DNA of 64,000 nucleotides from an uncultured Gammaproteobacteria bacterium. Lineage in GTDB: Bacteria > Pseudomonadota > Gammaproteobacteria > JACCXJ01. Of this stretch, positions 3,305-50,577 are shown in pieces. Where the stretch lies: positions 256,001 through 320,000 of the forward strand of contig CAVXTM010000012.1 in the NCBI GenBank assembly GCA_963764725.1, given 5' to 3'. Position numbers and translations under genes: made by a program. Within the stretch, counting starts at the first letter, position 1. Each line of letters opens with the position of its first letter. The notes under the pieces are model-generated. The model was not told the DNA's origin and ran no database searches. It worked only from the letters and a program-made list of their open reading frames with translations.

Positions 3305-3435
3305 CGTTTTCTCCTCCGCGCACACCCGCGCAATAACGCTACATAGCGCAAGGCCCGCGGAGAAAGGCGGCAGGGCGGGAAAAGCGATAACGGCCCGGGC
3401 GCCGCGGCATCACCCTCCGCAATGCCATTGCAACA

Positions 3436-3646
3436 CCTTCAGGCCGGTCTCCGGGCTCGCAAGCGGGTTCAAAAACCCCGGGAGCAGCGCCTTCCCATGC
3501 TTGATGCACAGTGACGTGATGCTGATTCCCTTACTTGCTTACCGTTGCGGGGGCAGCGCCGGGATTGCGCTCGGGCCGAAACTCGAGCGCGCACCGGCTT
3601 CCCGTTTCATCCCCTCGATCGAACGTTCTCAGGGACACCTGAAGCG
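3436..3646 (-). promoter_or_regulatory. Cobalamin riboswitch upstream of btuB-btuM
   Basis: Minus strand contains aggtg...aaacgggaagccggtg...aatcccggcgctgcccccgcaacggtaa...cactg...tgggaagg...agcccggagaccggcctgaag (B12 box). Confidence 0.93.
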
Positions 3647-3671
3647 TGCACAATATCGTCTAGGGATTGAG

Positions 3672-3684: not shown

Positions 3685-4014
3685 TGCATCTCCTCTGGTA
3701 AAGGCCCTTGTGGCCCTTTCCACAGTGTGAACGATGCCACTACGAAGCGAGAACCAGAAGAGGCTCCGTGATGCGGTTTAGTTCAACAGGCGTTTATACG
3801 ATACTGAATCCGTCGTAGCCGTTTGCTGCGTTAAGCGGTAGAGAGGAGTCCGCGTGACTTGAGCTGCTCCAGCGAGCAAAGTCGCGTTTCGTTCATGTCG
3901 ATCACAATGGCTGCCATGCCCACGTTCGGACTCATACCCATATTGGAAGACACTAAGGTTTTACACAAGCGCAGTAAAACGGTTACACTTTTTAATCTTG
4001 GATTTTCATCCATG

Positions 4015-4180
4015 GGATAAGGTTTTCGCGTAACGCGAAGTAACAGGGAATCGTGTGCAAATCACGAGCTGTCGCGCAACTGTAAGTAACGCATAAGCTT
4101 TTGCCGGAGATGCCCACTGTTCCAACAACGGAATGGGAAGGGCGGCAAAAGAGTTACAAGCCAGGAGACCTACCTTATCC
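4015..4180 (+). promoter_or_regulatory. Cobalamin riboswitch upstream of metE
   Basis: P1 GGATAAGGT/ACCTTATCC; acagggaatcgtgtgcaaatcacgagctgtcgcgcaactgtaa...ccactg...tgggaagg...agccaggagacctacc. Confidence 0.93.
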
Positions 4181-4323
4181 GCAACGGCGATGCTTCCGCG
4201 GTCCGAGGCTCAGTCAGGTGGAACCCCATTGTGCCCGTACGGGCGAGGTGTGTCTGCCTTCCTCTTTCCGCGGTGACATCGCGAAGTTATCGGTAGCGTT
4301 AACCTAGGAAAGGAAAGGTGCAC

Positions 4324-26295: not shown

Positions 26296-27858
26296 CTAAA
26301 TTGACTCACGTCGCACGCCTGATCGGCTCCATTCGTAGTAGTTCTTCAGAAGACGTTTCATCGTCGCGGTCAGCCGGGTTTTCCGCCACAGGTTAGCGGC
26401 TTTTTTTACGGCCTCCGCCTGGGTGGGATACGGGTGGATGCTCGCGAGCAAGGTTTTCAGGCCCCGGCCCGCTCGCATCAGTACCGTGATCTCACTGATG
26501 ATCTCGCCTGCATGCTCGGCGACGACGGTCGCCCCGAGGATGCGATCCGTTCCCTTCTTGATATGCAGCCGCGCAAAGCCCTCCTCTTCACCATCGAGGA
26601 TCGCGCGATCGACCTCGGCCAGATCGTAAGTATAGGTTTCGGTTTCCATGTCCTGCTCGGCGGCAGCCGCATCCATCCCCACATGGGCAATCTCGGGCGT
26701 GGTGTAGGTGCACCAGGGGACGAGGAGTGAGCGCGTGGTGGCGGAGCCCAGCCCAAAGGGATGAGGAAAGAGCGCGTTTTGGATCACGATTTGCGCCAGG
26801 GCATCGGCCATGTGAGTAAATTTGTACGCGGAGCAGACGTCACCGGCGGCGTAAATCGAAGGATTCGTGGTCCGCAAATGATCATCCACCCGCACGCCGG
26901 CCTCGGGATCGAAATCGACCCCGGCCGCTTCCAAGCCCAGGCCTTCGACGTTCGGGGCTCGCCCTACGCCCACGAGGACTTCATCGACACACAGTTCCTG
27001 CCGCCGGCCTTGTGTTTCATAGCCTACAATCTTTCCGCGCTCGGCGCGGCTCACCTGACTTATGCCGGCGTTCAATGCGAATGTTACGCCCTCGCTTTCC
27101 ATCCGCTGCTGCACGACGCGGGCCGCATCCGGGTCGTCCCGCACGAGGATACGCTCGGCGCGTTCTAGCACCCAGACCTCGCTCCCGAAGCGAGCGAAGG
27201 TCTGCGCCAGTTCGCAGCCGATCGGCCCGGCCCCGATGACCGCTAACCGACGCGGTAGCGCGCTCAGATCGAAGACCGTCTCGTTGGTGAGATAGCCGGC
27301 TTCCTTGAGACCGGGGATCGGCGGCGCCATCGCGCGCGTACCCGTGCAAACCGCGGCTTTTCTGAAGATCAGCGTCTGGTCCTCAACCGCGATCCGGTCC
27401 CCTCCGGTGAAACGCCCTTCGCCCAAGTAAACATCGACCCCGAGACGGGTGTAACGTTCAACGGAATCGTTGTTGCTGATGCGTGCGCGCAGCCGCCGCA
27501 TGCGCGCCATGGCGGCAGTGAAGTCGTAGCCGACCTCGCCCGCGATCCGCAATCCGAACTCCTCCGCGTTGCGCAGCCCGGACCATGCGCGTGCGGCGCG
27601 AATCAAGGCCTTGGAAGGCACACAACCCGCATTAAGGCAATCACCGCCCATTAGCGCTTTTTCGACCAGCGCCACCTTCGCACCCAGTCCCGCCGCCACC
27701 ACCGCTGTCACGAGCCCGGCCGTTCCCGCCCCGATGACGGCCAGGTTGTACACCCCGGATGGCCGTGGATTAATCCAGTTGCTCGGCCGAACGTTCGCGG
27801 TCAGCTCGCGGTTGTACGCGTCATCGGGAAGGAGCCCGTCGCGGCGCGCGTTATTCAC
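26296..27858 (-). CDS. MerA/dihydrolipoamide-dehydrogenase-like FAD disulfide oxidoreductase
   Basis: GAGTAG, GGDCLNAGCVPSK, GAGPIG.E, AAGD, IHPYPTQAE. Lacks the C-terminal Cys-Cys of true MerA. Confidence 0.88.
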   Translation of the reverse strand: MNNARRDGLLPDDAYNRELTANVRPSNWINPRPSGVYNLAVIGAGTAGLVTAVVAAGLGAKVALVEKALMGGDCLNAGCVPSKALIRAARAWSGLRNAEEFGLRIAGEVGYDFTAAMARMRRLRARISNNDSVERYTRLGVDVYLGEGRFTGGDRIAVEDQTLIFRKAAVCTGTRAMAPPIPGLKEAGYLTNETVFDLSALPRRLAVIGAGPIGCELAQTFARFGSEVWVLERAERILVRDDPDAARVVQQRMESEGVTFALNAGISQVSRAERGKIVGYETQGRRQELCVDEVLVGVGRAPNVEGLGLEAAGVDFDPEAGVRVDDHLRTTNPSIYAAGDVCSAYKFTHMADALAQIVIQNALFPHPFGLGSATTRSLLVPWCTYTTPEIAHVGMDAAAAEQDMETETYTYDLAEVDRAILDGEEEGFARLHIKKGTDRILGATVVAEHAGEIISEITVLMRAGRGLKTLLASIHPYPTQAEAVKKAANLWRKTRLTATMKRLLKNYYEWSRSGVRRESI

Positions 27859-28098
27859 GCTTGATGCTCTCGAATCGCAGCCGGTGGTAGGGCACCGGCA
27901 CCAGCGGCAGCGGGAGCCACCGCTGGATGCACTTGCCCACTAGCAGAGACCGCGATGGGTCCACGGCACGCTCCTCGTTTTACGTCATGCCTATCGACAT
28001 TCTCCGGGACAAAGTCTAACACGGAGCCGAGCACGCGCGCTCGATATTCCCCGGCGGTAAGGCGCCGCTTACGTGTGCCGAAGAGCAACACATCGGAT

Positions 28099-28132
28099 GT
28101 AGGGAGGGTTAGGGCGCAGCCTGTAACCCGCC
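28099..28132 (+). repeat. GTAG-type REP-like palindrome
   Basis: GTAG followed by imperfect hairpin GGAGGGTTA-GGGCGCAGCCTG-TAACCCGCC. Confidence 0.55.
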
Positions 28133-28140
28133 GCCTCCAA

Positions 28141-28232
28141 GTTTCAATGAGCGGGCGATACGAAGTACTCCACGGAGAATAGTAGCCCGTCTTCGGTTTC
28201 AATCCGCGCCCGCTCAAATGAGCGGGCGATAC
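28141..28232 (-). CRISPR. Minimal type I-C array: one intact 37-nt repeat, one 34-nt spacer, one internally deleted repeat
   Basis: 28196-28232 reads GTATCGCCCGCTCATTTGAGCGGGCGCGGATTGAAAC on the minus strand; spacer 28162-28195; 28141-28161 is the same repeat missing 16 nt; adjacent to leader and cas2. Confidence 0.85.
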
Positions 28233-28410
28233 TGCCCGCGCGCAACCTCTGATGTATGAACCGTAATTCCGACAGTGCGCGCGAACCTGTCGGCTAGTCT
28301 GAACATCCTTTGCCTCTGACCGATACACAAGTTCTATTTTACCATTCCCAATCACTCGCTTGCGCTCGCCGCGAATCTCCCAGCTAAACAGCCGCCACTT
28401 GAGGTTCGCG
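28233..28410 (-). promoter_or_regulatory. CRISPR leader
   Basis: Non-coding stretch between the cas2 stop and the first repeat, with GCGAAC/GTTCGC motifs typical of I-C leaders. Confidence 0.7.
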
Positions 28411-28701
28411 CTAAACCATCAGCGGCCCGTCGAAATCCACGGCTTTGAAGTGCCCGAACTCCTTGACGTGTTCTTGCAAGGGTTCATTGAGACGATAAAA
28501 ACGGAGATTGTCCTCCGTTAAACTAATTTCATCGAGAAGCCGCTGTTCCATAACCGCGTAGTTGGTCGCATCTACCTTGCATTCAAAAACGGATTTCTGA
28601 ACGCGCTGCCCGTAGTCCTGACATACTCTGGCTACACGGCGCAGCCGCCGCCGTCCTTCCGCCGTTTCCGTGGACACATCATAGGCCACTAATATCAGCA
28701 C
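28411..28701 (-). CDS. cas2: CRISPR-associated Cas2
   Basis: [43 protein letters not shown]; 96 aa from GTG. Confidence 0.95.
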
Positions 28702-28711
28702 GACGGCACGC

Positions 28712-29170
28712 TCAACGGTGAAGATAAGGCACGTAGGCAGGCGCGTCGCGCCGTAGATAACGCGCGAGCATACGTGCCTGCACGTGCGCCAAGAGACCGA
28801 TCGGCACCTGCTGCCCGAGCACGGGGTGGGCGAGGGTCTCCTGCTTGCGTTTCTGGTAAGCGCCGATGACAAGCTTACGGCCCTCGTCGTTCAGAAGGAC
28901 GGCGCCCCCCGGGCGCTTATCGAAATGCTTGGCCTGGATCTGGGCCCGGTTGATCAATGTCAACGCCAGCCGATCGGCGATCACCGAACGGAACTCCTCC
29001 AAGATATCCAAGGCAAGCGCCATGCGTCCCGGCCGCACGGCATGCAGAAACCCGAGCTGCGGATCAAGTCCTACGCTCTCCACGGCGCTGCGGCAATCGT
29101 TGAGGAGGACCGCGTAGAGGAACGACAGCAGCGCATTCATGGGGTCGAGCGGCGGCCGGCGCGTGCGTAC
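28712..29170 (-). pseudogene. cas1: 3' half of type I-C cas1 (5' part deleted)
   Basis: [50 protein letters not shown]...Y.PY. Sequence upstream of ~29170 is unrelated to Cas1. Confidence 0.9.
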
Positions 29171-29250
29171 GTCAGGCATCAGGAATTTCCACCGTGAGCT
29201 GGCGACTCGTGGGGGTAATCGTTTGTGACCACATAAGTAAACTCCTTCGT

Positions 29251-29489
29251 TTACGTCTTGGCTAAGGTACTCCGATTGGCATTCCAAACCCAGAGTTCGA
29301 CACCTCTTGGGATCGCTCAGCATAAACCGCTACGGTGTAATCCTCGAACTTGCGGGGCGCAGTAACGCCGGTCTTTTTGTCGATGTCGATCACTTTGCCG
29401 TCATCGGCCTTTTGCTCTATATCCAGCAGTCGGTGCGCCGGCGCACAGCCAAGCATTGCCTGACGCTTGCGCCGTTCGGGGTCGTCCAT
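29251..29489 (-). pseudogene. cas7: 3' fragment of type I-C cas7 (csd2) with a frameshift near 29312
   Basis: RQAMLGCAPAHRLLD...PRKFEDYTV, continuing in another frame as PRGVELWVWNANRSTLAKT-stop. Confidence 0.75.
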
Positions 29490-29496
29490 GAAGTCT

Positions 29497-29859
29497 TCAC
29501 TTCAAGGGTTTAGCCGCCATTCGCTTGCGCGTGCGCGATACTCGGTCAACGCCGATGCCGGTATTCTCCAAAGCCACAATGCCAAGAATCGGGTCGCAAT
29601 CCTCGGGACCAAAGATAATCTGCGCTACGGTTTCACTGCCCATGAAGCTGATGCGCACAAAACCGAAGGGATATTCCACGACTTCGCCGTTGGCAAGCTC
29701 GTAAACATCCCGCCCCTCAATCTCGATGCCGGCCGCTTTCAAGGATGAAGCGGGCGCAAGACAATCGATGGCGCCAGTATCCACCAGAAAGTCGGCTTCG
29801 TAAGAAGGTTGATCTTTGCGTAGATTGGCTACGCTGACCGTGACATGCGTGATTCCCAT
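29497..29859 (-). CDS. Clan AA (retropepsin-like) aspartic protease
   Basis: FLVDTGA catalytic motif, ELANG, PILGIVALE; RBS aggag. Confidence 0.85.
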   Translation of the reverse strand: MGITHVTVSVANLRKDQPSYEADFLVDTGAIDCLAPASSLKAAGIEIEGRDVYELANGEVVEYPFGFVRISFMGSETVAQIIFGPEDCDPILGIVALENTGIGVDRVSRTRKRMAAKPLK

Positions 29860-30003
29860 GGCGTTTTCTCCTGGAGCTTAAATGTCGTGTCTCTCGTGCT
29901 CGTGCGTGCCGCGCAGCGTGTGCCCTGGAACTCGCCCTCAGCGTGGATGAGATAGCAGCGGCGCGGGTGGCGCCGCTTCATGCTTTTTGCGAACAAAGAA
30001 TAC

Positions 30004-33000
30004 TTAGTAGATGCCCCAGTCATGCTCTTCGTCGGCTCGCGATTCCTGTTGGATGTGACGTGTGACAAAAGCCAAGCTTTGAGCCACCCACGCGCGAACA
30101 GCAGGATTCGCGTGGTTCTCAAGTGATAGCAGTGCCTCTTCCTGCCGCCGGTAGTAAGGAACTAAGGACCCCGACCAAGAGAACGTGCCCATATTGGCCG
30201 ACAGTGCTTGAAGTACCTTCTCATTGTCGCCGAACTGGTCAACCAGCGCTCTTGCCAAGGGATGCAAGGCCCAACGACCGTCAACATTAACCGTGACGGG
30301 AATAACTCTAGCCAAGAACGTTGGAGCGAATTCGGAATTGCTCCGACACCATTCGAGGAGAAGCTCATCTGGGAGTTCCTGTAGGATACTAATTTCCTGC
30401 TCAGGCCGGTTAGTTGCTGAAAGCATATGCTCCAGGTGAAAACGCCCAGACGCGTCGGCAGCCGAGATCGCTGCACTAAATAGGGGCCACGCCCGTTTAG
30501 GGTACGACCGCAGCAAAACGCGTAACACCGGCTTAACGTTGTGCTCCAAATTAGCATATGGAAGCTTGTCAGAGACTGTAGCTAGGATCTTCTTAATTAT
30601 TAATTCAGCAAATTCTCCATCTTCGTCTTCCAAAATTTTTGTGACCGCTCTCTCCCAATGGTGAAAGTCCATCATTCCACGCCCAGAATCTCCCGAGAGG
30701 CGAATCTCCGTTAGCACAGATTTGAATGTATCAACACTAGCCTTCCATTTCGCCTCGTCATCATGGCAATACATAGATAGGATATCTAGCGCGACCCAAG
30801 GACCTTCTGGTTGAAAACAAAGCAGATCCGTAACCCAGACGGAAATCTCATCAGGTGATAGATGGGCGATAACACGGTTATAGGTAAATGCGCGACATAC
30901 CTCGACTCCAAGCTTCGCATCTCTGATGAGCCTAAGTAGAACCTTTAAATGCCGTAGCTCAGGGTGGCTCAATCGAATTAAGTTCGCGTAATGCCGGCGT
31001 AAGGTCTTCGAGGTGGCCGCATGGTCAACGAGTTCATCCCAAGCTTTCCTGTCTCGGTCTCTCAATACCTCCAACATTCCTGCCAGCACAATAGGGTTTG
31101 CGTCTTGCACATCCTCCAGCACTCTCATGGCATTTCTTGCTAATTCCGCTGGGTCAGGAACCCTCTCAACAATAGTGCGTCCGAAAATATATCCCTGCCT
31201 CTGTTCCCCAACGAGCAGCACATCTAGGTTCTTGACGAGTTCATCAACAGTGCTAGCACATTCTTGCGCGAGTTGCTTTGCCTTTTCTGCAGCAAGATCT
31301 ACGTAGTGTCCATTTTCATCCTTCTCGCGCTCATAAGGAGGTGTACTGACAAAGAGTCTTAAGCGCTCACGTAACACCTTAGGCTGGAGAAGTCGAATCC
31401 ATTCTTCGAGCTTCTTCCGGCCTTCTGGCGGCACCCGATTGCTGTCGTAGTGAAGTGAGACTTGAACGCTATCCAAAGCCTCCGCCCAGAGTGGGCCATC
31501 GTGTTCCACTATGCGATGCAAGGCTTGGTCGAGTGCATTGACTCTTCCATAGAGCATGAGTCCTCGTATGCTTGAGGCAATCGCCGACTTTGCAATTACT
31601 TTGAGTTCGCCTTCGCGGAGCACGAGCGCAGTTAAGCGCTCCAGCGCGGCCTCCCAATATTCGAACGCTTCCCCCCAAGTCTTTGGCCGCCAGTCCTGCA
31701 GTGGGATACCACTTCCTTGTTGCTCGGCGCCACCCGTACGGCTGAAATGGTGTGTCCGTAATGCTCGGCTTAACGCCTTGACACCGAGTGCCTGCTGATC
31801 TGGATCATTGGATCCAAGCGCTTCGTCCGCAATATCTAAGCGCATTTCAGGAGGCGCTTCTGTTCCGGACAGATAAGTGCTGAAGAGCTGCTCGAACTGG
31901 TCGGTTGCGTTGTTAGACCACCGCTCATTTTCGGCTGCTGCCAGCCGCAATAGCAGTCGGGCGGCAACCGGAAACGTCTCTCGACGAAAGCACAGCTTTT
32001 CGAGCGACCAGACAAGGTTTTGCCGAATGTCGCCGTCAAGTCGGAGCAGGTCCTCCTTACTCAGGATACCTAGCACACGCCGTAACGCTTCGGCAGTGGC
32101 TTGGGGATTCACTTCGACAAACGCGCGAAAGAGGAGTGAACCCCGGTCAGAAAGGATCACTTCCGCGCGGCCAAAAGGGCCTTGGACTCCGCAGACATCT
32201 TGTGTAAGTTTCCTAACGTCTGGCAGGAAATCTAAGGTGCTGACGCGCGAACAGAAGCTATGTAAGAGACGTCCAGGCATGGGCTTGCCGATGAGATCGG
32301 CCGCCTTTTCTGGCCTGATTCGCCTCCACCAGTCGGCCGCTAGCCTTACGGCTAGCGGTTTTGGGATTACCTGACCGTAGCGGCCCCGGATGTCAATAAT
32401 GCCACGGTGTTTGAAGGCCATAACGTGCCTATGAAACTCGTTCACAGCCAGTGTCGAAACGTTTTCAGCAATAAACTCGCATTCCGCCCCAGCGTCGTCC
32501 GACAAACCAAATGTCTCAAATAACGCGCAACCGCAAATTGCCTGGAGCGCCGCCTCATTCTGTAGTCCCGCACCCCATAGCATCTTTTTCAGGAGGTCAT
32601 CGTCAGTAAGGCTGCCCATCTCCGGGTGCTCATTGAGCCGCGCGTCTGCTAGGAGCACTGCCATCTGTGGAAATCCTTGCGCGAACGACACGATTCGGTC
32701 GAGATCTGGGATGGTGTCCTTGTAGTTCGGCTCAAGCATTTGCTTGATATGGCGATCGTCAAGCCGTTTGAGATCAATGGTGCGAGTAGCGGTGTCCCGT
32801 TCCGGGTTATAGTCCAAGGTTAAAAGGCTGAGCTGGCTATCTGTTCTCTGAAATTGGGCTGCTAACCTCTTGTGGAGCCCGAGCTCGCAATTATCGACAA
32901 CGACGATACCCTCGCGCTTAGAACGCACCCAGTCGCTAACGTGATTAACGAGGCTCGTCCCTCCATCGGAGGCATCTATATATACAACCTGCTGCGAGAG

Positions 33001-46107: not shown

Positions 46108-46683
46108 TCAGTGTCTCAGGCTTAACAGGCGATGCTGGGTATTGAATTGCGTCTTTAGGAACTGCATCTGATCCGCCAGGATACGCCGATTCGAGAGCGC
46201 GAGGAACTCGGCCCAATTGGGCACGTAGGGAACGGCCAATAGGGCTACTCCGGCTTCCTCGGGCCTGCGGTTGCCCTTGTGCGTATTGCACCCCTTGCAC
46301 GCGGCCACGACGTTCGACCAACGATCGTATCCCCCGCGCGATAGGGGGATGACATGGTCGCGGGTGAGCTGCGATGCGGCATACTCCTCGCCGCAATACA
46401 TGCACAGGTGTCCATCGCGTAAGAACAGCTCGCGATTATTCAAGGGGGGGATGCCACGCTGACCGTGTTTGATCCCGCGCGCACGCTTAACGGCAATGAT
46501 GGAATTGACCGTGATCGACGAACGCTGACCGGTTAGGCTGGACGTACCACCGAAAAAGGTGAATACCCGTTCGCCCGCGGTCCATGCGATTCTGTTCTTG
46601 CTATAAAGACAGACCGCATCGTGCCACGGTATCCATCGGAGCGGCGACCCGGTAACATCCAATCGCAAAATGAGCGGTGCCAT
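46108..46683 (-). CDS. HNH endonuclease
   Basis: LFLRD..LCMYCG, TRDHVIPLSRGG...W.NVVAACKGCN..K. Confidence 0.9.
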   Translation of the reverse strand: MAPLILRLDVTGSPLRWIPWHDAVCLYSKNRIAWTAGERVFTFFGGTSSLTGQRSSITVNSIIAVKRARGIKHGQRGIPPLNNRELFLRDGHLCMYCGEEYAASQLTRDHVIPLSRGGYDRWSNVVAACKGCNTHKGNRRPEEAGVALLAVPYVPNWAEFLALSNRRILADQMQFLKTQFNTQHRLLSLRH

Positions 46684-46797
46684 AACTCAGCGTCCGAGGT
46701 ACGGAATATCAATCGTGCGCGCGTTCACAGTGCCCTTACGCATAAGTGCTCCTTTGTATGCGAAAAAGAACAGGAGATCAAGTCACGGCGAGGGCTT

Positions 46798-47601
46798 ATG
46801 GGAAATATAGAATCGCTTATCGAGATCATGGCCAGGCTCCGCGATCCCGAACGCGGTTGTCCTTGGGATCGCGAGCAGACCTTCGCGTCACTCGCACCGC
46901 ACACGCTCGAGGAAACCTACGAAGTCATCGATGCGATCGAAGGCGGCCGGATCGAGGATTTGCGCGAAGAGCTGGGAGACCTGTTGTTCCAGGTGGTGTT
47001 TTACTCACAATTGGCAAGCGAGCAGGGAGTGTTCGGCTTGGATGAAGTGGCCGCTACCCTGATCGATAAGCTCATCCGCCGGCATCCGCATGTGTTCGCG
47101 AACGCGGTCGTGATCGGTACCGATCAGCAGTCCGCGGCGTGGGAAGCGCACAAAACCAAGGAACGCGCGGCTAAAGACGCTAACGCAACCAGCATCCTCG
47201 ACGGTATCGCCTCGGCGCTTCCGGCGCTCCTACGGGCCGTAAAGCTCCAGCGGCGCGCGGCCGCCGTAGGCTTCGATTGGGCTGAGATCGGCGCCGTTCT
47301 TGACGCCGTAATGGGTGAGCTTAACGAGGTCCGCGCAGCGCTCGGCGGTGGGGACGCGACGCACATCGCCGAGGAAATCGGTGATTTGTTGTTTGCGTGT
47401 GTCAATTTGGCGCGGTTCGCGTGCGTCGATCCTGAGTCGGCGTTGCGGTCGGCCAATCAAAAATTCGAGCGCCGGTTTCGCTACATAGAACAGCGGTTAC
47501 AGGCGCAAGGCCAGTCCGTGAACGACGCCACGCTTGCGGAGATGGATGCTCTGTGGGAAGAGGCCAAGCGGGACGTCCCGAAAAAAAAGAGGGCGCCATA
47601 G
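46798..47601 (+). CDS. mazG: Nucleoside triphosphate pyrophosphohydrolase
   Basis: LRDPERGCPWDREQT, EELGDLLFQVVF, RRHPHVF, EEIGDLLF, KFERRF. Confidence 0.96.
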   Translation: MGNIESLIEIMARLRDPERGCPWDREQTFASLAPHTLEETYEVIDAIEGGRIEDLREELGDLLFQVVFYSQLASEQGVFGLDEVAATLIDKLIRRHPHVFANAVVIGTDQQSAAWEAHKTKERAAKDANATSILDGIASALPALLRAVKLQRRAAAVGFDWAEIGAVLDAVMGELNEVRAALGGGDATHIAEEIGDLLFACVNLARFACVDPESALRSANQKFERRFRYIEQRLQAQGQSVNDATLAEMDALWEEAKRDVPKKKRAP

Positions 47602-47650
47602 GCGCCCTCGAAGACCAAAAGGAGGAGGCACAGTCGAACAGACTTGTGCT
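47581..47650 (-). ncRNA. Candidate ~70-nt trans-acting sRNA with anti-SD seed (MmgR/suhB-like architecture)
   Basis: Predicted RNA AGCACAAGUCUGUUCGACUGUGC-CUCCUCCUUUUGGUCUUC-GAGGGCGCCUAUGGCGCCCUC-U8: 5' hairpin, unpaired CUCCUCC, strong terminator. Starts 12 nt after a sigma54-type -12 GC. Confidence 0.7.
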
Positions 47651-47661
47651 GCGCTAAAAAG

Positions 47662-47676
47662 GCACAATAAATGCCA
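47662..47676 (-). promoter_or_regulatory. Sigma54-type -24/-12 promoter for the candidate sRNA
   Basis: Minus strand TGGCATTTATTGTGC (GG-N10-GC); IHF-like ATTCAAGAGGTTA at ~47696-47708 just upstream. Confidence 0.6.
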
Positions 47677-47870
47677 TTCCAAACAATGGTGATATATTCA
47701 AGAGGTTAGTATTATGTATTTACCGCGCTACACGGTCGACGAGAACCTAAAACGCCAAGCGCTTGACACAGTGCCTCATGCTCCCGGCAACGTGTGCCGG
47801 GGGAGCGGACTGAACACGGCGGCAGCCAGATCTCGATGCGCTGGTTCGAAGACCTCTGGGAGATTCTCGA

Positions 47871-49565
47871 ATGGAAGATAACGCGTTCCGCACCGGCCTT
47901 CGTCAAGGCTTGGATCCCTTTGGCATCATGACCTCGTGTTTAGAGGTTCAGCAGGCATGGCTGCGGCAGCCGGGTGAGCTGGCCAAGCAATTATTCAAAC
48001 TTGGCGAGCAGTGCTCAAACCTGCAGGTGCTGGGTTACCTGCGATTATGCGGCCAGGAGGTGGAGGACACGGTCCGTCCCGTGGCTTACGACGAGCGCTT
48101 CGCCGAGCCTATCTGGACCGAGCGCCCCTATTACGATCTGATGAAAGAATCCTACCTTGCCTACACTCGTTGGCTTGAGGACGCGATCGAGAATACGCCC
48201 GATGTTGCTCCGCGCATAAAACAGAAAGCCGGATTCTGGGTCCGGCAGATGCTCAACGCCGCCTCGCCATCGAACTACTTTTGGACCAACCCGCACGCGG
48301 TTCACAAGTCGATCGCAAGTTTTGGTATGAGCACGGTTGATGGTTTAAGAAATGCCGTGAACGATGCGTTGCGGGGCGACGTGAGCATGGTGGACGATGA
48401 GACCTTCAAGGTCGGTCTCAATCTCGCCACGACGCCCGGCCAGGTCGTTTTCCGTAACCACTTGTTGGAAGTCATTCAATACGCGCCGGCCACCCAGAAC
48501 GTTCACAGCCTGCCAGTGGTCATCGTCGCCCCGTGGATCAATAAATATTACATTCTAGACTTGAGCGCGCAGAAGAGCCTGGTCCGCTATTTGGTGTCGC
48601 GCGGATTCTCGGTGTTCATCACCAGTTGGAATAATCCGCGCTCGGAGAGCCGCAACGTCGGCTTCGAGGACTACATGCTGCAAGGCGCGTTGCAAGCGGT
48701 CGACGTGGCCAGGGAGGTCACGGGCGCCGCGCAGGTGCATGCGGCCGGGTATTGCATCGGTGGCACCATCCTCGCGGCATTGATGGCTTGGCTCAACACG
48801 GGGTTGAAGCGCAACCAGCCGCCCCCCATAGCACATTTTACGCTGCTTACGGCACTGGTCGATTTCACCGCCCCGGGCGACATCGGCGTGTTCATTGATG
48901 AGAACAGCATCGCGTTTCTGGAGAAGCTGATGGCAGACCGGGGTTATCTCGATGGGGCCGCGATGGCTTGGTCGTTTCGGATGCTGAGATCCAATAGCCT
49001 GATTTGGCATTACCTGGTCCACAATTACCTCTACGGTGAAGGGCCGCCGCCGCTCGATGTTCTGTATTGGAACACGGATACGACGCGGCTGCCCGCGGCG
49101 ATGCACTCGTATTACCTTCGGGAATGTTACCTCAATAACAAGCTCGTGCAGCCCGGCGGGCTGACCTTGGGCGGAAAGCCCATCGATCTGCGATCCATAA
49201 AGCAACCCCTGTACGCGGTCGGCACCGAACAAGACCACATCGCGCCTTGGAAAGAAACGTTCAAGATCTGTGCGCTTGTCCAGGCGCCGGTGCGTTATGT
49301 GCTAGCGACCTCCGGACATATCATGGGCGTCGTTAACCCGCCGGTGGAGCCGCCGAAACGGCGTTACTGGGTCGGAGCGGTAAGCGATCATGCCGATCCG
49401 GAAACCTGGCGCAACGGTATCGAAAAGACGCCTGGTTCCTGGTGGGAAGACTGGGCTCAATGGCTCAGCAAACAGTGCGGCCCCTTGGTTGCGGCCCCGC
49501 CGATCGGGAGCCAATCCTATCCGGCACTGTGCCCGGCGCCGGGGACCTATGTGCTGGAGCGTTAG
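47871..49565 (+). CDS. phaC: Class I/II polyhydroxyalkanoate synthase
   Basis: SPSNY..TNP, NLATTPG.VV, PWINKYYILDL, lipase box GYCIGG, LYWN.D, DHIAPW, SGHIMGVVNPP, APGTYVLER. Confidence 0.93.
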   Translation: MEDNAFRTGLRQGLDPFGIMTSCLEVQQAWLRQPGELAKQLFKLGEQCSNLQVLGYLRLCGQEVEDTVRPVAYDERFAEPIWTERPYYDLMKESYLAYTRWLEDAIENTPDVAPRIKQKAGFWVRQMLNAASPSNYFWTNPHAVHKSIASFGMSTVDGLRNAVNDALRGDVSMVDDETFKVGLNLATTPGQVVFRNHLLEVIQYAPATQNVHSLPVVIVAPWINKYYILDLSAQKSLVRYLVSRGFSVFITSWNNPRSESRNVGFEDYMLQGALQAVDVAREVTGAAQVHAAGYCIGGTILAALMAWLNTGLKRNQPPPIAHFTLLTALVDFTAPGDIGVFIDENSIAFLEKLMADRGYLDGAAMAWSFRMLRSNSLIWHYLVHNYLYGEGPPPLDVLYWNTDTTRLPAAMHSYYLRECYLNNKLVQPGGLTLGGKPIDLRSIKQPLYAVGTEQDHIAPWKETFKICALVQAPVRYVLATSGHIMGVVNPPVEPPKRRYWVGAVSDHADPETWRNGIEKTPGSWWEDWAQWLSKQCGPLVAAPPIGSQSYPALCPAPGTYVLER

Positions 49566-49725: not shown

Positions 49726-50577
49726 TCACGCAAGCCGCAGGCTCGAAGTGGCGGGCTGCTTGGCGTCGCGGTCCTTATCTCGTTGGACCATGGCGTAGGC
49801 CGAGTGATTGTGTATCGACTCAAAGTTCTCTGATTCTATCGTGTAAGCGGCGATGCGCTCGTCGCTATTCATCTTGAGGGCCACGTCGCGGACGATATCT
49901 TCCACGAATTTCGGGTTGTCGTACGCCTTCTCGGTGACGTATTTCTCGTCCGGCCGTTTGAGCAGCCCATAGAGCTCACACGATGCCACCTCCTCGACGA
50001 CATCGATGAACTCCTCGATCCAAACGAAATCGCGTATCCTCGCCAATAACGTGACATGCGAGCGTTGATTGTGCGCGCCGTAATCCGATATATTCTTGGA
50101 ACACGGACATAGGGTGGTAATGGGAACTACCACCTTCACCTCGATGCTGGGAAGTCCGTCCTGAATCTGCCCGACAAAGCTGACTTCGTAATCGAGTAAG
50201 CTCCTTACTTTTGAAATAGGCGCTACCTTAGTCACGAAATAGGGAAACTTCATTTCGATGTGACCGACGCGCGCATCAAGCAGTTCCGTCATTTCCACCA
50301 CCATGCGCTTGAATGATTGAACGGTGATCTCATATTCCTGGGAATTGAGGATTTCAACGAACCGCGACATGTGCGTCCCTTTGAATCGATGGGGCAGGCC
50401 GACGTACATATTGAACGTGGCGACGGTGTGCTGCTCGCGCCCGGAACGGTCTCTTACCACGACCGGGTGGCGAATATCCTTAATCCCGACACGATCGATA
50501 TCGATCCGCCGGCAGTCCTCACTGCTTTGAATATCGGGGATACCGTCGGCAATGTGTGCAGGGTCGTTCATGGTCAC
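49726..50577 (-). CDS. folE2: GTP cyclohydrolase IB
   Basis: [46 protein letters not shown]. Confidence 0.95.

Follow-up and report, generated by a model that had tools for sequence, protein, structure and literature searches.

The window analysed here, a 64,000-nt stretch of contig CAVXTM010000012.1 from an uncultured gammaproteobacterium, carries between mazG and the polyhydroxyalkanoate (PHA) synthase gene phaC a compact unit that is very probably the gene of a small RNA (sRNA). The predicted transcript consists of a 5′ hairpin, an unpaired CU-rich stretch and an intrinsic terminator, and is preceded by a sigma-54-type −24/−12 promoter motif, an IHF-like site and a candidate enhancer (upstream activator site, UAS). 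A first-pass annotation had listed the promoter motif, the hairpin, the unpaired stretch, a 9-bp GC terminator, its U8 tract and the IHF-like site, and each of these was found where it had placed them. Coordinates follow the numbering of the window, and the RNA unit is read on the minus strand.

47581..47650, minus strand: predicted small RNA, 70 nt; start placed by promoter spacing, 3′ end at the U-tract
47628..47649, minus strand: 5′ hairpin GCAC-A-AGUC / loop UGUUC / GACU-GUGC, from sequence and fold
47610..47627, minus strand: CU-rich seed CUCCUCCUUUUGGUCUUC, anti-Shine-Dalgarno-like, largely unpaired in the centroid fold
47589..47609 (stem-loop) and 47581..47588 (U8), minus strand: intrinsic terminator GAGGGCGCC-UAU-GGCGCCCUC plus U8, from the terminator scan
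47661..47676, minus strand: sigma-54-type −24/−12 promoter motif TGGCATTTATTGTGCC, with GG at 47675-47674 and GC at 47663-47662 (GG-N10-GC)
47696..47708, minus strand: IHF-like site TAACCTCTTGAAT, whose complement ATTCAAGAGGTTA agrees with 8/9 specified positions of the IHF consensus WATCAANNNNTTR
47753..47768, minus strand: near-palindromic candidate enhancer (UAS) of 16 bp, TGTCAAGCGCTTGGCG, at −118 to −103 relative to the predicted start
46621..47601, plus strand: mazG (Pfam MazG, 6.6e-39), convergent with the RNA
47871..49565, plus strand: phaC (Pfam PhaC_N, 7e-57), divergent from the RNA
49726..50577, minus strand: folE2 (Pfam GCHY-1, 1e-95), directly upstream of the RNA in lineages without phaC at this place

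Anatomy of the RNA

The 70-nt RNA has a folding energy of −29.5 kcal/mol, compared with −14.9 ± 2.7 kcal/mol for 200 shuffled sequences (z −5.5), none of which equals it. The terminator stem comprises 9 bp, 8 of them G-C, closed by a loop of three bases (UAU). The terminator scan reports it for the minus strand alone; read on the plus strand, the stem runs into GAAGACC, with no T run. The open reading frame (ORF) list of the window contains no minus-strand gene downstream of the RNA, in agreement with the first-pass annotation, which had the terminator facing away from mazG and serving no minus-strand gene. The transcript would start at A47650, separated by 11 bases from the C at 47662 of the promoter motif. 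The listed start of phaC on the opposite strand lies 221 nt from this position, where about 220 nt had been estimated.

Two other readings of the unit were rejected. A small protein was discarded because the only ATG falls within the terminator loop and lacks a ribosome-binding site. Antisense control of mazG was discarded as a conserved function: the 3′ 21 nt of the RNA are antisense to the 3′ end of mazG in the window's genus (g1), and the overlap is absent in a second genus of the same order (g2), where mazG ends ~25 nt short of the RNA 3′ end. In the mazG ORF itself (326 aa, GTG start) the MazG domain occupies residues 86-159, compared with 36-109 in the g2 orthologues, and the true start is probably ~50 codons inside the listed ORF.

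Conservation and structural covariation

The genomes searched within the order are USC-gamma-type metagenome-assembled genomes (MAGs) of three genera, g1, g2 and g3; G000 is the window's own genome. A blastn search of 41 genomes with 47560-47880 as query matched ten, namely G000, all eight other g1 genomes and one g3 genome, and none of the five g2 genomes or of the 26 genomes of other families. The g1 matches mostly begin near 47777. At a second locus in G001 and G006 the match is confined to the promoter and the RNA (47701/47687-47584), and the g3 match covers the RNA alone (47649-47582).

A covariance model of the transcript only (R1), built from 12 sequences (alignment A1), matches G000 once (103.7 bits, E 3.9e-19, the E-values being rough after a short calibration). 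Across the order it finds 18 copies in 15 of 15 genomes (G000, 8/8 other g1, 5/5 g2 and 1/1 g3), with two copies each in G001, G006 and G009. A strict pattern of hairpin and seed, run against 185,579 species represented by one genome each, returns 12 stretches. All of them lie in MAGs titled Chromatiales or Gammaproteobacteria bacterium, including 'USCg_Taylor' and cave MAGs, and these titles bear out the earlier assignment of the RNA to Gammaproteobacteria.

Promoter, seed and terminator are ~85-95% conserved across g1. The UCCUCC core of the seed is retained in 10 of the 12 A1 sequences, the other two being g1 second copies with UCCACC. YUCCUCC is retained in g2 and g3 and in two families described below, f16 and f141, and in most copies a U-rich stretch containing GG(U) comes after it. 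The first-pass annotation had proposed an independent sRNA gene with a sigma-54-type promoter, an IHF-like site, a 5′ hairpin, a CU-rich unpaired seed and a unidirectional terminator, which is supported by the conservation of these parts in relatives.

Pairing holds in 99% of cells across the 12 close sequences and in 100% within the 5′ hairpin. One terminator pair changes from C:G to U:A, a compensatory exchange, in g2 and g3, and one pair of the 5′ hairpin changes from A:U to U:A in g2. A wider alignment of 20 sequences, 18 of them distinct, was fitted to the model and includes the doubtful row L063; in it 97.0% of cells are paired, compared with 89.8% in shuffles, and two-sided changes occur at eight pairs. 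None of 500 shuffles reaches any of five measures of this alignment, and all slid registers fall to 36-57% paired. RNAalifold on its own, from 13 sequences, arrives at both helices and shows three compensatory pairs. The two f141 copies also differ from each other by compensatory changes in the 5′ hairpin.

A survey of the class with R1, using one genome from each of ~150 families, gave three borderline matches outside the window's family (L062, L063 and L064; E 0.003-0.009). L062, from family f16, has TGGCACGGCATCTGCA, a 5′ hairpin, CUCCUCCCUUGGGUCUUG and a terminator. A broader model (R2) has matches in six of the nine genomes of the f16 order, one of them in its training set; five are convincing and L069 is not. 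The class survey with R2 added six borderline matches, of which L071 (family f141) and L073 (family f108) have promoter, hairpin and seed, and the other four are terminators behind genes. L064, L069, L070, L072, L074 and L075 were rejected as homologues, being bare terminators after genes. Within the f141 order the RNA occurs in two of three genomes; the f108 order consists of one genome, and the RNA there is one candidate. Judged from sequence, homologues are recognisable in two further gammaproteobacterial families, with one candidate in a fourth. L063 (G093:C1:650147-650215, minus strand) is a terminator-ended RNA candidate of another family with two CUCC stretches (CUCCUCCAUCCUCCUUUGAGGCUUCGG), and may be a distant relative or a look-alike.

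Genomes flagged as unpublished supply the whole of the g3 evidence (G010), in g1 five of the eight genomes besides G000 (G001, G002, G005, G007 and G008), three of the five g2 genomes (G009, G012 and G014), two of the three second copies (G001 and G009) and both f141 genomes (G154 and G173). The core findings hold too on G000, G003, G004, G006, G011, G013, the f16 genomes and the public contigs of the pattern scan.

The promoter and upstream elements

The promoter region was tabulated for 25 copies of the RNA gene, with distances counted to the covariance-model start. GG-N10-GC is conserved in 20 of them, 10-16 nt before the model start.

g1 main copies: GG-N10-GC in 9/9, the C 11-13 nt before the model start
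g1 second copies: 2/2, spacing as in the g1 main copies
g3: 1/1, TGGTAC-N5-ATGC
f16: 5/5, TGGCAY-N5-MTGCA, 16 nt before the model start
f141: 1/1, TGGTAT-N5-ATGC
f108: 1/1, TGGCAC-N5-CTGC
g2: 1/6, the other five having AGCAC-N5-GTGC

A second f141 copy, read by eye and outside the 25, has TGGCATGCTCTATGCC (TGGCAT-N5-ATGC). The five-base spacer inside the motif is freely variable (TTATT, CCATT, CTATT, CAATT, ACCGA), and it is mainly because the spacer varies while GG and GC persist that we accept the sigma-54 reading. A start set 12 nt past the GC would, in every lineage, be at most a few bases away from the base of the 5′ hairpin, which in f16 is longer on its 5′ side. Counting both strands, the 4.21-Mb genome has 36 occurrences of TGGCAY-N5-KTGC against ~41 expected by composition; the pattern is not enriched. 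At a density of ~1 per 234 kb of strand, its rarity makes a placement at the right distance from the hairpin unlikely to be due to chance. A promoter scan of the minus strand upstream of 47650 found no convincing −10/−35 pair.

Two further elements recur upstream. The first, an IHF-like TAAC-N3-TT[GC] at −58 to −63, is present in 9/9 g1 main, 5/5 g2 main and 4/5 f16 copies, and not in the second copies, g3, f141 or f108. The second, YGTCAR-N5-YGRCR, corresponds to the candidate enhancer. All nine g1 main copies have it at −118 to −120, and all five g2 main copies have two, near −150 and −107. In 4/5 f16 copies it is inverted and lies at −109 to −111; an inverted element fits the expectation for an enhancer. 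Most of the g2 and f16 elements have CGTCAAGATCCCGG in common despite unalignable surroundings. The sole f141 copy scanned has a match at −50, with a ~0.004 chance per locus. Near 95 other sigma-54-like sites of the genome, a search for the UAS-like element gave three loose matches, none of them convincing.

The host genome encodes one rpoN (one Sigma54_DBD gene), 12 strong Sigma54_activat genes (E < 1e-40) and one hfq.

On the plus strand, a sigma-70-like site (ATGCCA-16-TATATT, with a TG extension) at 47671-47698 is directed at phaC. Its −35 box and the −24 box of the RNA promoter share their bases, and the RNA and phaC promoters could thus compete.

Genomic context and the link to phaC

The gene order around the RNA differs between lineages.

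g2: same order as the window (mazG, RNA, phaC)
g3: folE2 followed immediately by the RNA, both on one strand and with no intervening phaC
f16: polyprenyl synthase gene, folE2, RNA, ~100-aa ORF, then convergent mazG
f141: polyprenyl synthase gene, folE2, RNA, HNH gene
f108 candidate: neighbours aroE and a Cache-domain gene, a different context

Of the second copies, those of two genomes follow a radical-SAM/DUF3641 gene and the remaining one adjoins a TonB-dependent receptor gene. Across the main copies the conserved neighbourhood is, from the sequences compared, folE2-RNA-mazG, and this synteny provides an independent check on the distant homologues. Only in g1 and g2 does phaC separate folE2 from the RNA, and an adjacency limited to two genera makes the PHA link weak. 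The physical linkage to phaC put forward in the first-pass annotation holds in g1 and g2; it does not extend to g3, f16 and f141, which have no phaC at the locus, or to the second copies, which lie elsewhere.

Within g1 the region between RNA and phaC comes in two forms. The ~121 nt from the UAS-like element to phaC (47772-47892) are present in G000, G003 and G004 and missing in 6/9 g1 genomes. Contigs of three sequencing runs also lack this segment, joining 47771 to 47893 with six other letters between. In the short form the phaC start is probably an in-frame ATG at ~47928, tens of bases from the UAS-like element.

A conserved ORF of ~100 aa follows the RNA in g3 and f16 (L022:1115-1489, minus strand; L062:1622-1981, plus; L066:1087-1440, minus; L067:1090-1455, minus; L068:1616-1984, plus). 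The encoded proteins have a signal-peptide-like start and the shared core LxxGMxEAEVLYRLGPYD; they give no Pfam hit, and no clear homologue was found in the window's genome.

Comparison with known RNAs

No Rfam 15 family matches the RNA at its gathering score, either in the search of the whole window or at eight homologue loci. With the threshold relaxed to E up to 10, the region 47400-47900 gives sub-threshold matches only (suhB 19.1, BjrC1505 17.9 and ncS54 11.9 bits, among others). The best is suhB/MmgR (RF00519) at 47576-47644; it scores 19.1 bits (E 0.16), where the gathering score is 41, and rests on UCCUCC, CUU and the terminator. Elsewhere in the window the Rfam search marks two full-length cobalamin riboswitches that face apart (3425-3657, minus strand, 113 bits; 4003-4191, plus strand, 104 bits). 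It also marks a single CRISPR-DR9 repeat at 28196-28232 (minus strand; 51 bits, gathering score 45), and a search of 26500-30500 found no CRISPR repeat array.

Sigma-54-dependent sRNAs include Qrr, GlmY, CrcZ/CrcY, NrsZ and Pxr. Few are known, and each known one heads a major physiological switch. They resemble the present unit in combining −24/−12 boxes with an upstream activator site, between which the window has its IHF-like site. They differ in size, fold and seed, and none matches at Rfam thresholds.

The first-pass annotation had related the RNA to MmgR. A review (PMC8401924) describes MmgR as a 77-nt, Hfq-dependent alphaproteobacterial RNA that is transcribed from sigma-70-type −35/−10 boxes with a conserved dyad between them, is activated by NtrC and repressed by AniA, and reduces PhaP1 and PhaP2. 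MmgR (αr8, Sinorhizobium meliloti) and the present RNA are alike in size (77 versus ~70 nt), in having a 5′ hairpin, an unpaired UCCUCC and a strong terminator, and in belonging to a PHA-making genome. They are unlike in promoter, since MmgR has −35/−10 boxes where the window has GG-N10-GC, and in that MmgR is alphaproteobacterial and the present RNA gammaproteobacterial, with folE2/mazG synteny. Kinship with MmgR or Rfam suhB is not supported: it fails on score (19.1 versus 41), on taxon and on promoter type.

An anti-Shine-Dalgarno motif of the CCUCCUCC type, the presumed seed, is shared with the cuckoo, αr14 (NfeR1) and CcsR RNAs, which carry CCUCCUCCC motifs. In PMC4615179 and PMC10746234, RNAs of the cuckoo and αr14 type are expected to occlude ribosome-binding sites and are made of two to four adjacent hairpins with CCUCCUCCC in each loop, unlike the single linker motif seen here. 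None of these families gives an Rfam match at E up to 10 in 47400-47900.

A literature search, which did not extend to subscription journals, found no description of the RNA. In a paper on a USC-gamma MAG (PMC13333085), polyhydroxybutyrate metabolism is mentioned, and a term search returned no sRNA or sigma factor.

Candidate targets and expression

The RNA has Hfq-type features: the 9-bp stem with U8, UUUUGGUCUU before it, and the one hfq gene of the genome. Strong ribosome-binding sites are complementary to the seed, which makes translational repression through base pairing the most economical mechanism to propose. Targets in the window's own genome were sought by 9-mer seeding and by duplex energy, and neither search gave an outlier. 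The energy scan covered 3,705 crude start regions, with a mean duplex energy of −14.8 kcal/mol (standard deviation 3.8) and a best value of −30.3 kcal/mol. For five Phasin_2 genes the duplexes with the start region have energies of −5 to −18 kcal/mol, inside the spread seen across the genome.

The only leads are two genes. A POT-family transporter (C16:36833) has a two-part site, GAAGACCAA..GGAGG, kept in 6/9 g1 genomes; the POT start regions of g2 are unalignable. A PQQ (pyrroloquinoline quinone) dehydrogenase (C11:149341) has the site AGGAGGAGG, kept in g1, g2 and g3. Both could be explained by close kinship and by ribosome-binding sites of this type being strong in general. A 361-aa DDE_3 transposase is present in identical or near-identical copies (G000 C12:124766, C13:64339, C9:131259 and C9:5772), and its start region pairs with the seed at −26 to −29 kcal/mol; this pairing is probably incidental.

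RNA libraries with related sequence are available as strandless contigs from four runs. In metatranscriptome X19 a 762-nt contig of a relative spans 47592-47771 and then 47893-48466, and another contig spans 47385-47602; in metatranscriptome X20 no contig covers 47610-47710.

Interpretation

We consider it fairly probable that 47650-47581 on the minus strand encodes an independently transcribed, trans-acting sRNA of ~70 nt, from a family outside Rfam 15, under sigma-54 and enhancer control and with an anti-Shine-Dalgarno seed. Sigma-54 dependence is a likely component of this proposal, and for its action we lean towards anti-Shine-Dalgarno pairing. Specific control of PHA storage seems unlikely. 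In the proposed mechanism, sigma-54 RNA polymerase would bind the −24/−12 boxes at 47676-47661 and be activated through DNA looping by a putative enhancer-binding protein on 47768-47753, with IHF at 47708-47696 assisting. Transcription would end at the strong terminator, and the unpaired CUCCUCCUUUUGGUCUUC, probably with Hfq, would pair with purine-rich ribosome-binding sites and repress their translation.

Several observations weigh against this proposal. The target scan gives a smooth distribution without an outlier: no target stands out, and the CCUCC seed complements most Shine-Dalgarno sites. The strandless RNA libraries neither show nor exclude the RNA, and the covariance-model E-values are rough. 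Both upstream motifs were defined post hoc, the UAS-like pattern from g1, g2 and f16, which leaves its f141 match as the only independent one; this pattern is missing from 3/3 second copies, g3, f108 and L062. Seed and promoter were used in sorting the distant matches, so the presence of the promoter in distant homologues is partly circular, and L063 has no −24/−12 motif upstream despite its seed. The window's promoter motif agrees with only 8/12 specified positions of the consensus. The chief evidence against sigma-54 comes from g2, where AG replaces the normally invariant GG in 5/6 copies.

The last two points favour a real sRNA transcribed by another sigma factor, in which the −24/−12 resemblance would be incidental or reflect the site of a dimeric regulator, GGCA..TGCC being partly palindromic. 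The sigma-70-like reading of the same bases on the plus strand, towards phaC, points in this direction too. We regard this explanation as improbable, as the spacing from GG-N10-GC to the hairpin is constant around a variable spacer, the motif is also kept in copies away from phaC, those of f16, f141 and f108 are near canonical, and the minus strand upstream of 47650 offers no convincing −10/−35 pair.

A functional analogue of MmgR, nitrogen-regulated and limiting PHA granules by repressing phasin or pha mRNAs, as the first-pass annotation had suggested, appears distinctly unlikely. The RNA is divergent from phaC in two genera, and suhB/MmgR is the top sub-threshold Rfam match, with UCCUCC, CUU and terminator in common. 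In 6/9 g1 genomes the UAS-like element stands tens of bases from the phaC start, so that the RNA and phaC could share control. The effect of MmgR on PhaP1 and PhaP2 and its regulation by NtrC and AniA, as given in PMC8401924, would suit such a role. Against it stand the absence of phaC from the locus in g3, f16 and f141 and the Phasin_2 pairing energies, which do not leave the genome-wide spread; by eye no NtrC-type site was recognised, and no formal scan for one was made. A PHA link as such is possible but weak.

A cis element is very unlikely. It would be either a folE2 transcript terminator or 3′ end or the leader or attenuator of the small secreted-protein gene (g3, f16), with the window's unit as a relic. 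Such an element would account for the short distance at which the unit follows folE2, in the same orientation, in g3, f16 and f141, and for the ~100-aa signal-peptide-like ORF after the terminator in g3 and f16 (~100 nt on in f16). In the window, however, phaC on the opposite strand comes between folE2 and the unit, and downstream there is antisense mazG alone, yet promoter, seed and terminator are ~85-95% conserved across g1. Second copies occur in unrelated contexts, and no alternative antiterminator pairing is seen in the fold.

Relative to these alternatives, the trans-acting sigma-54-type sRNA remains our preferred reading. Sigma-54-type sRNAs are already known, and no new mechanism is revealed on present evidence; what is new is an uncatalogued RNA family, whose covariance model could join RNA family libraries.

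The window's order includes the USC-gamma / wb1-P19 group ('Candidatus Methyloligotrophales'), to which we assign the window itself from the MAG titles and from a preprint that describes these organisms as uncultured consumers of atmospheric methane (bioRxiv 10.1101/2024.08.23.608578). It is a long shot that in USC-gamma an ancient sigma-54/enhancer-controlled anti-Shine-Dalgarno sRNA has come to adjoin phaC in divergent orientation and that the two genes are governed by a single short control region. If so, the shared region would comprise the activator site, the IHF site and the overlapping −24/−12 and −35 boxes, and a starvation or nitrogen signal would turn the RNA on while modulating transcription of the PHA synthase gene. 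Carbon storage would then be coupled to translation control in trace-gas organisms. The RNA family supplies a promoter, a candidate enhancer site and a seed from which the signal and the regulon may be traced in these organisms.

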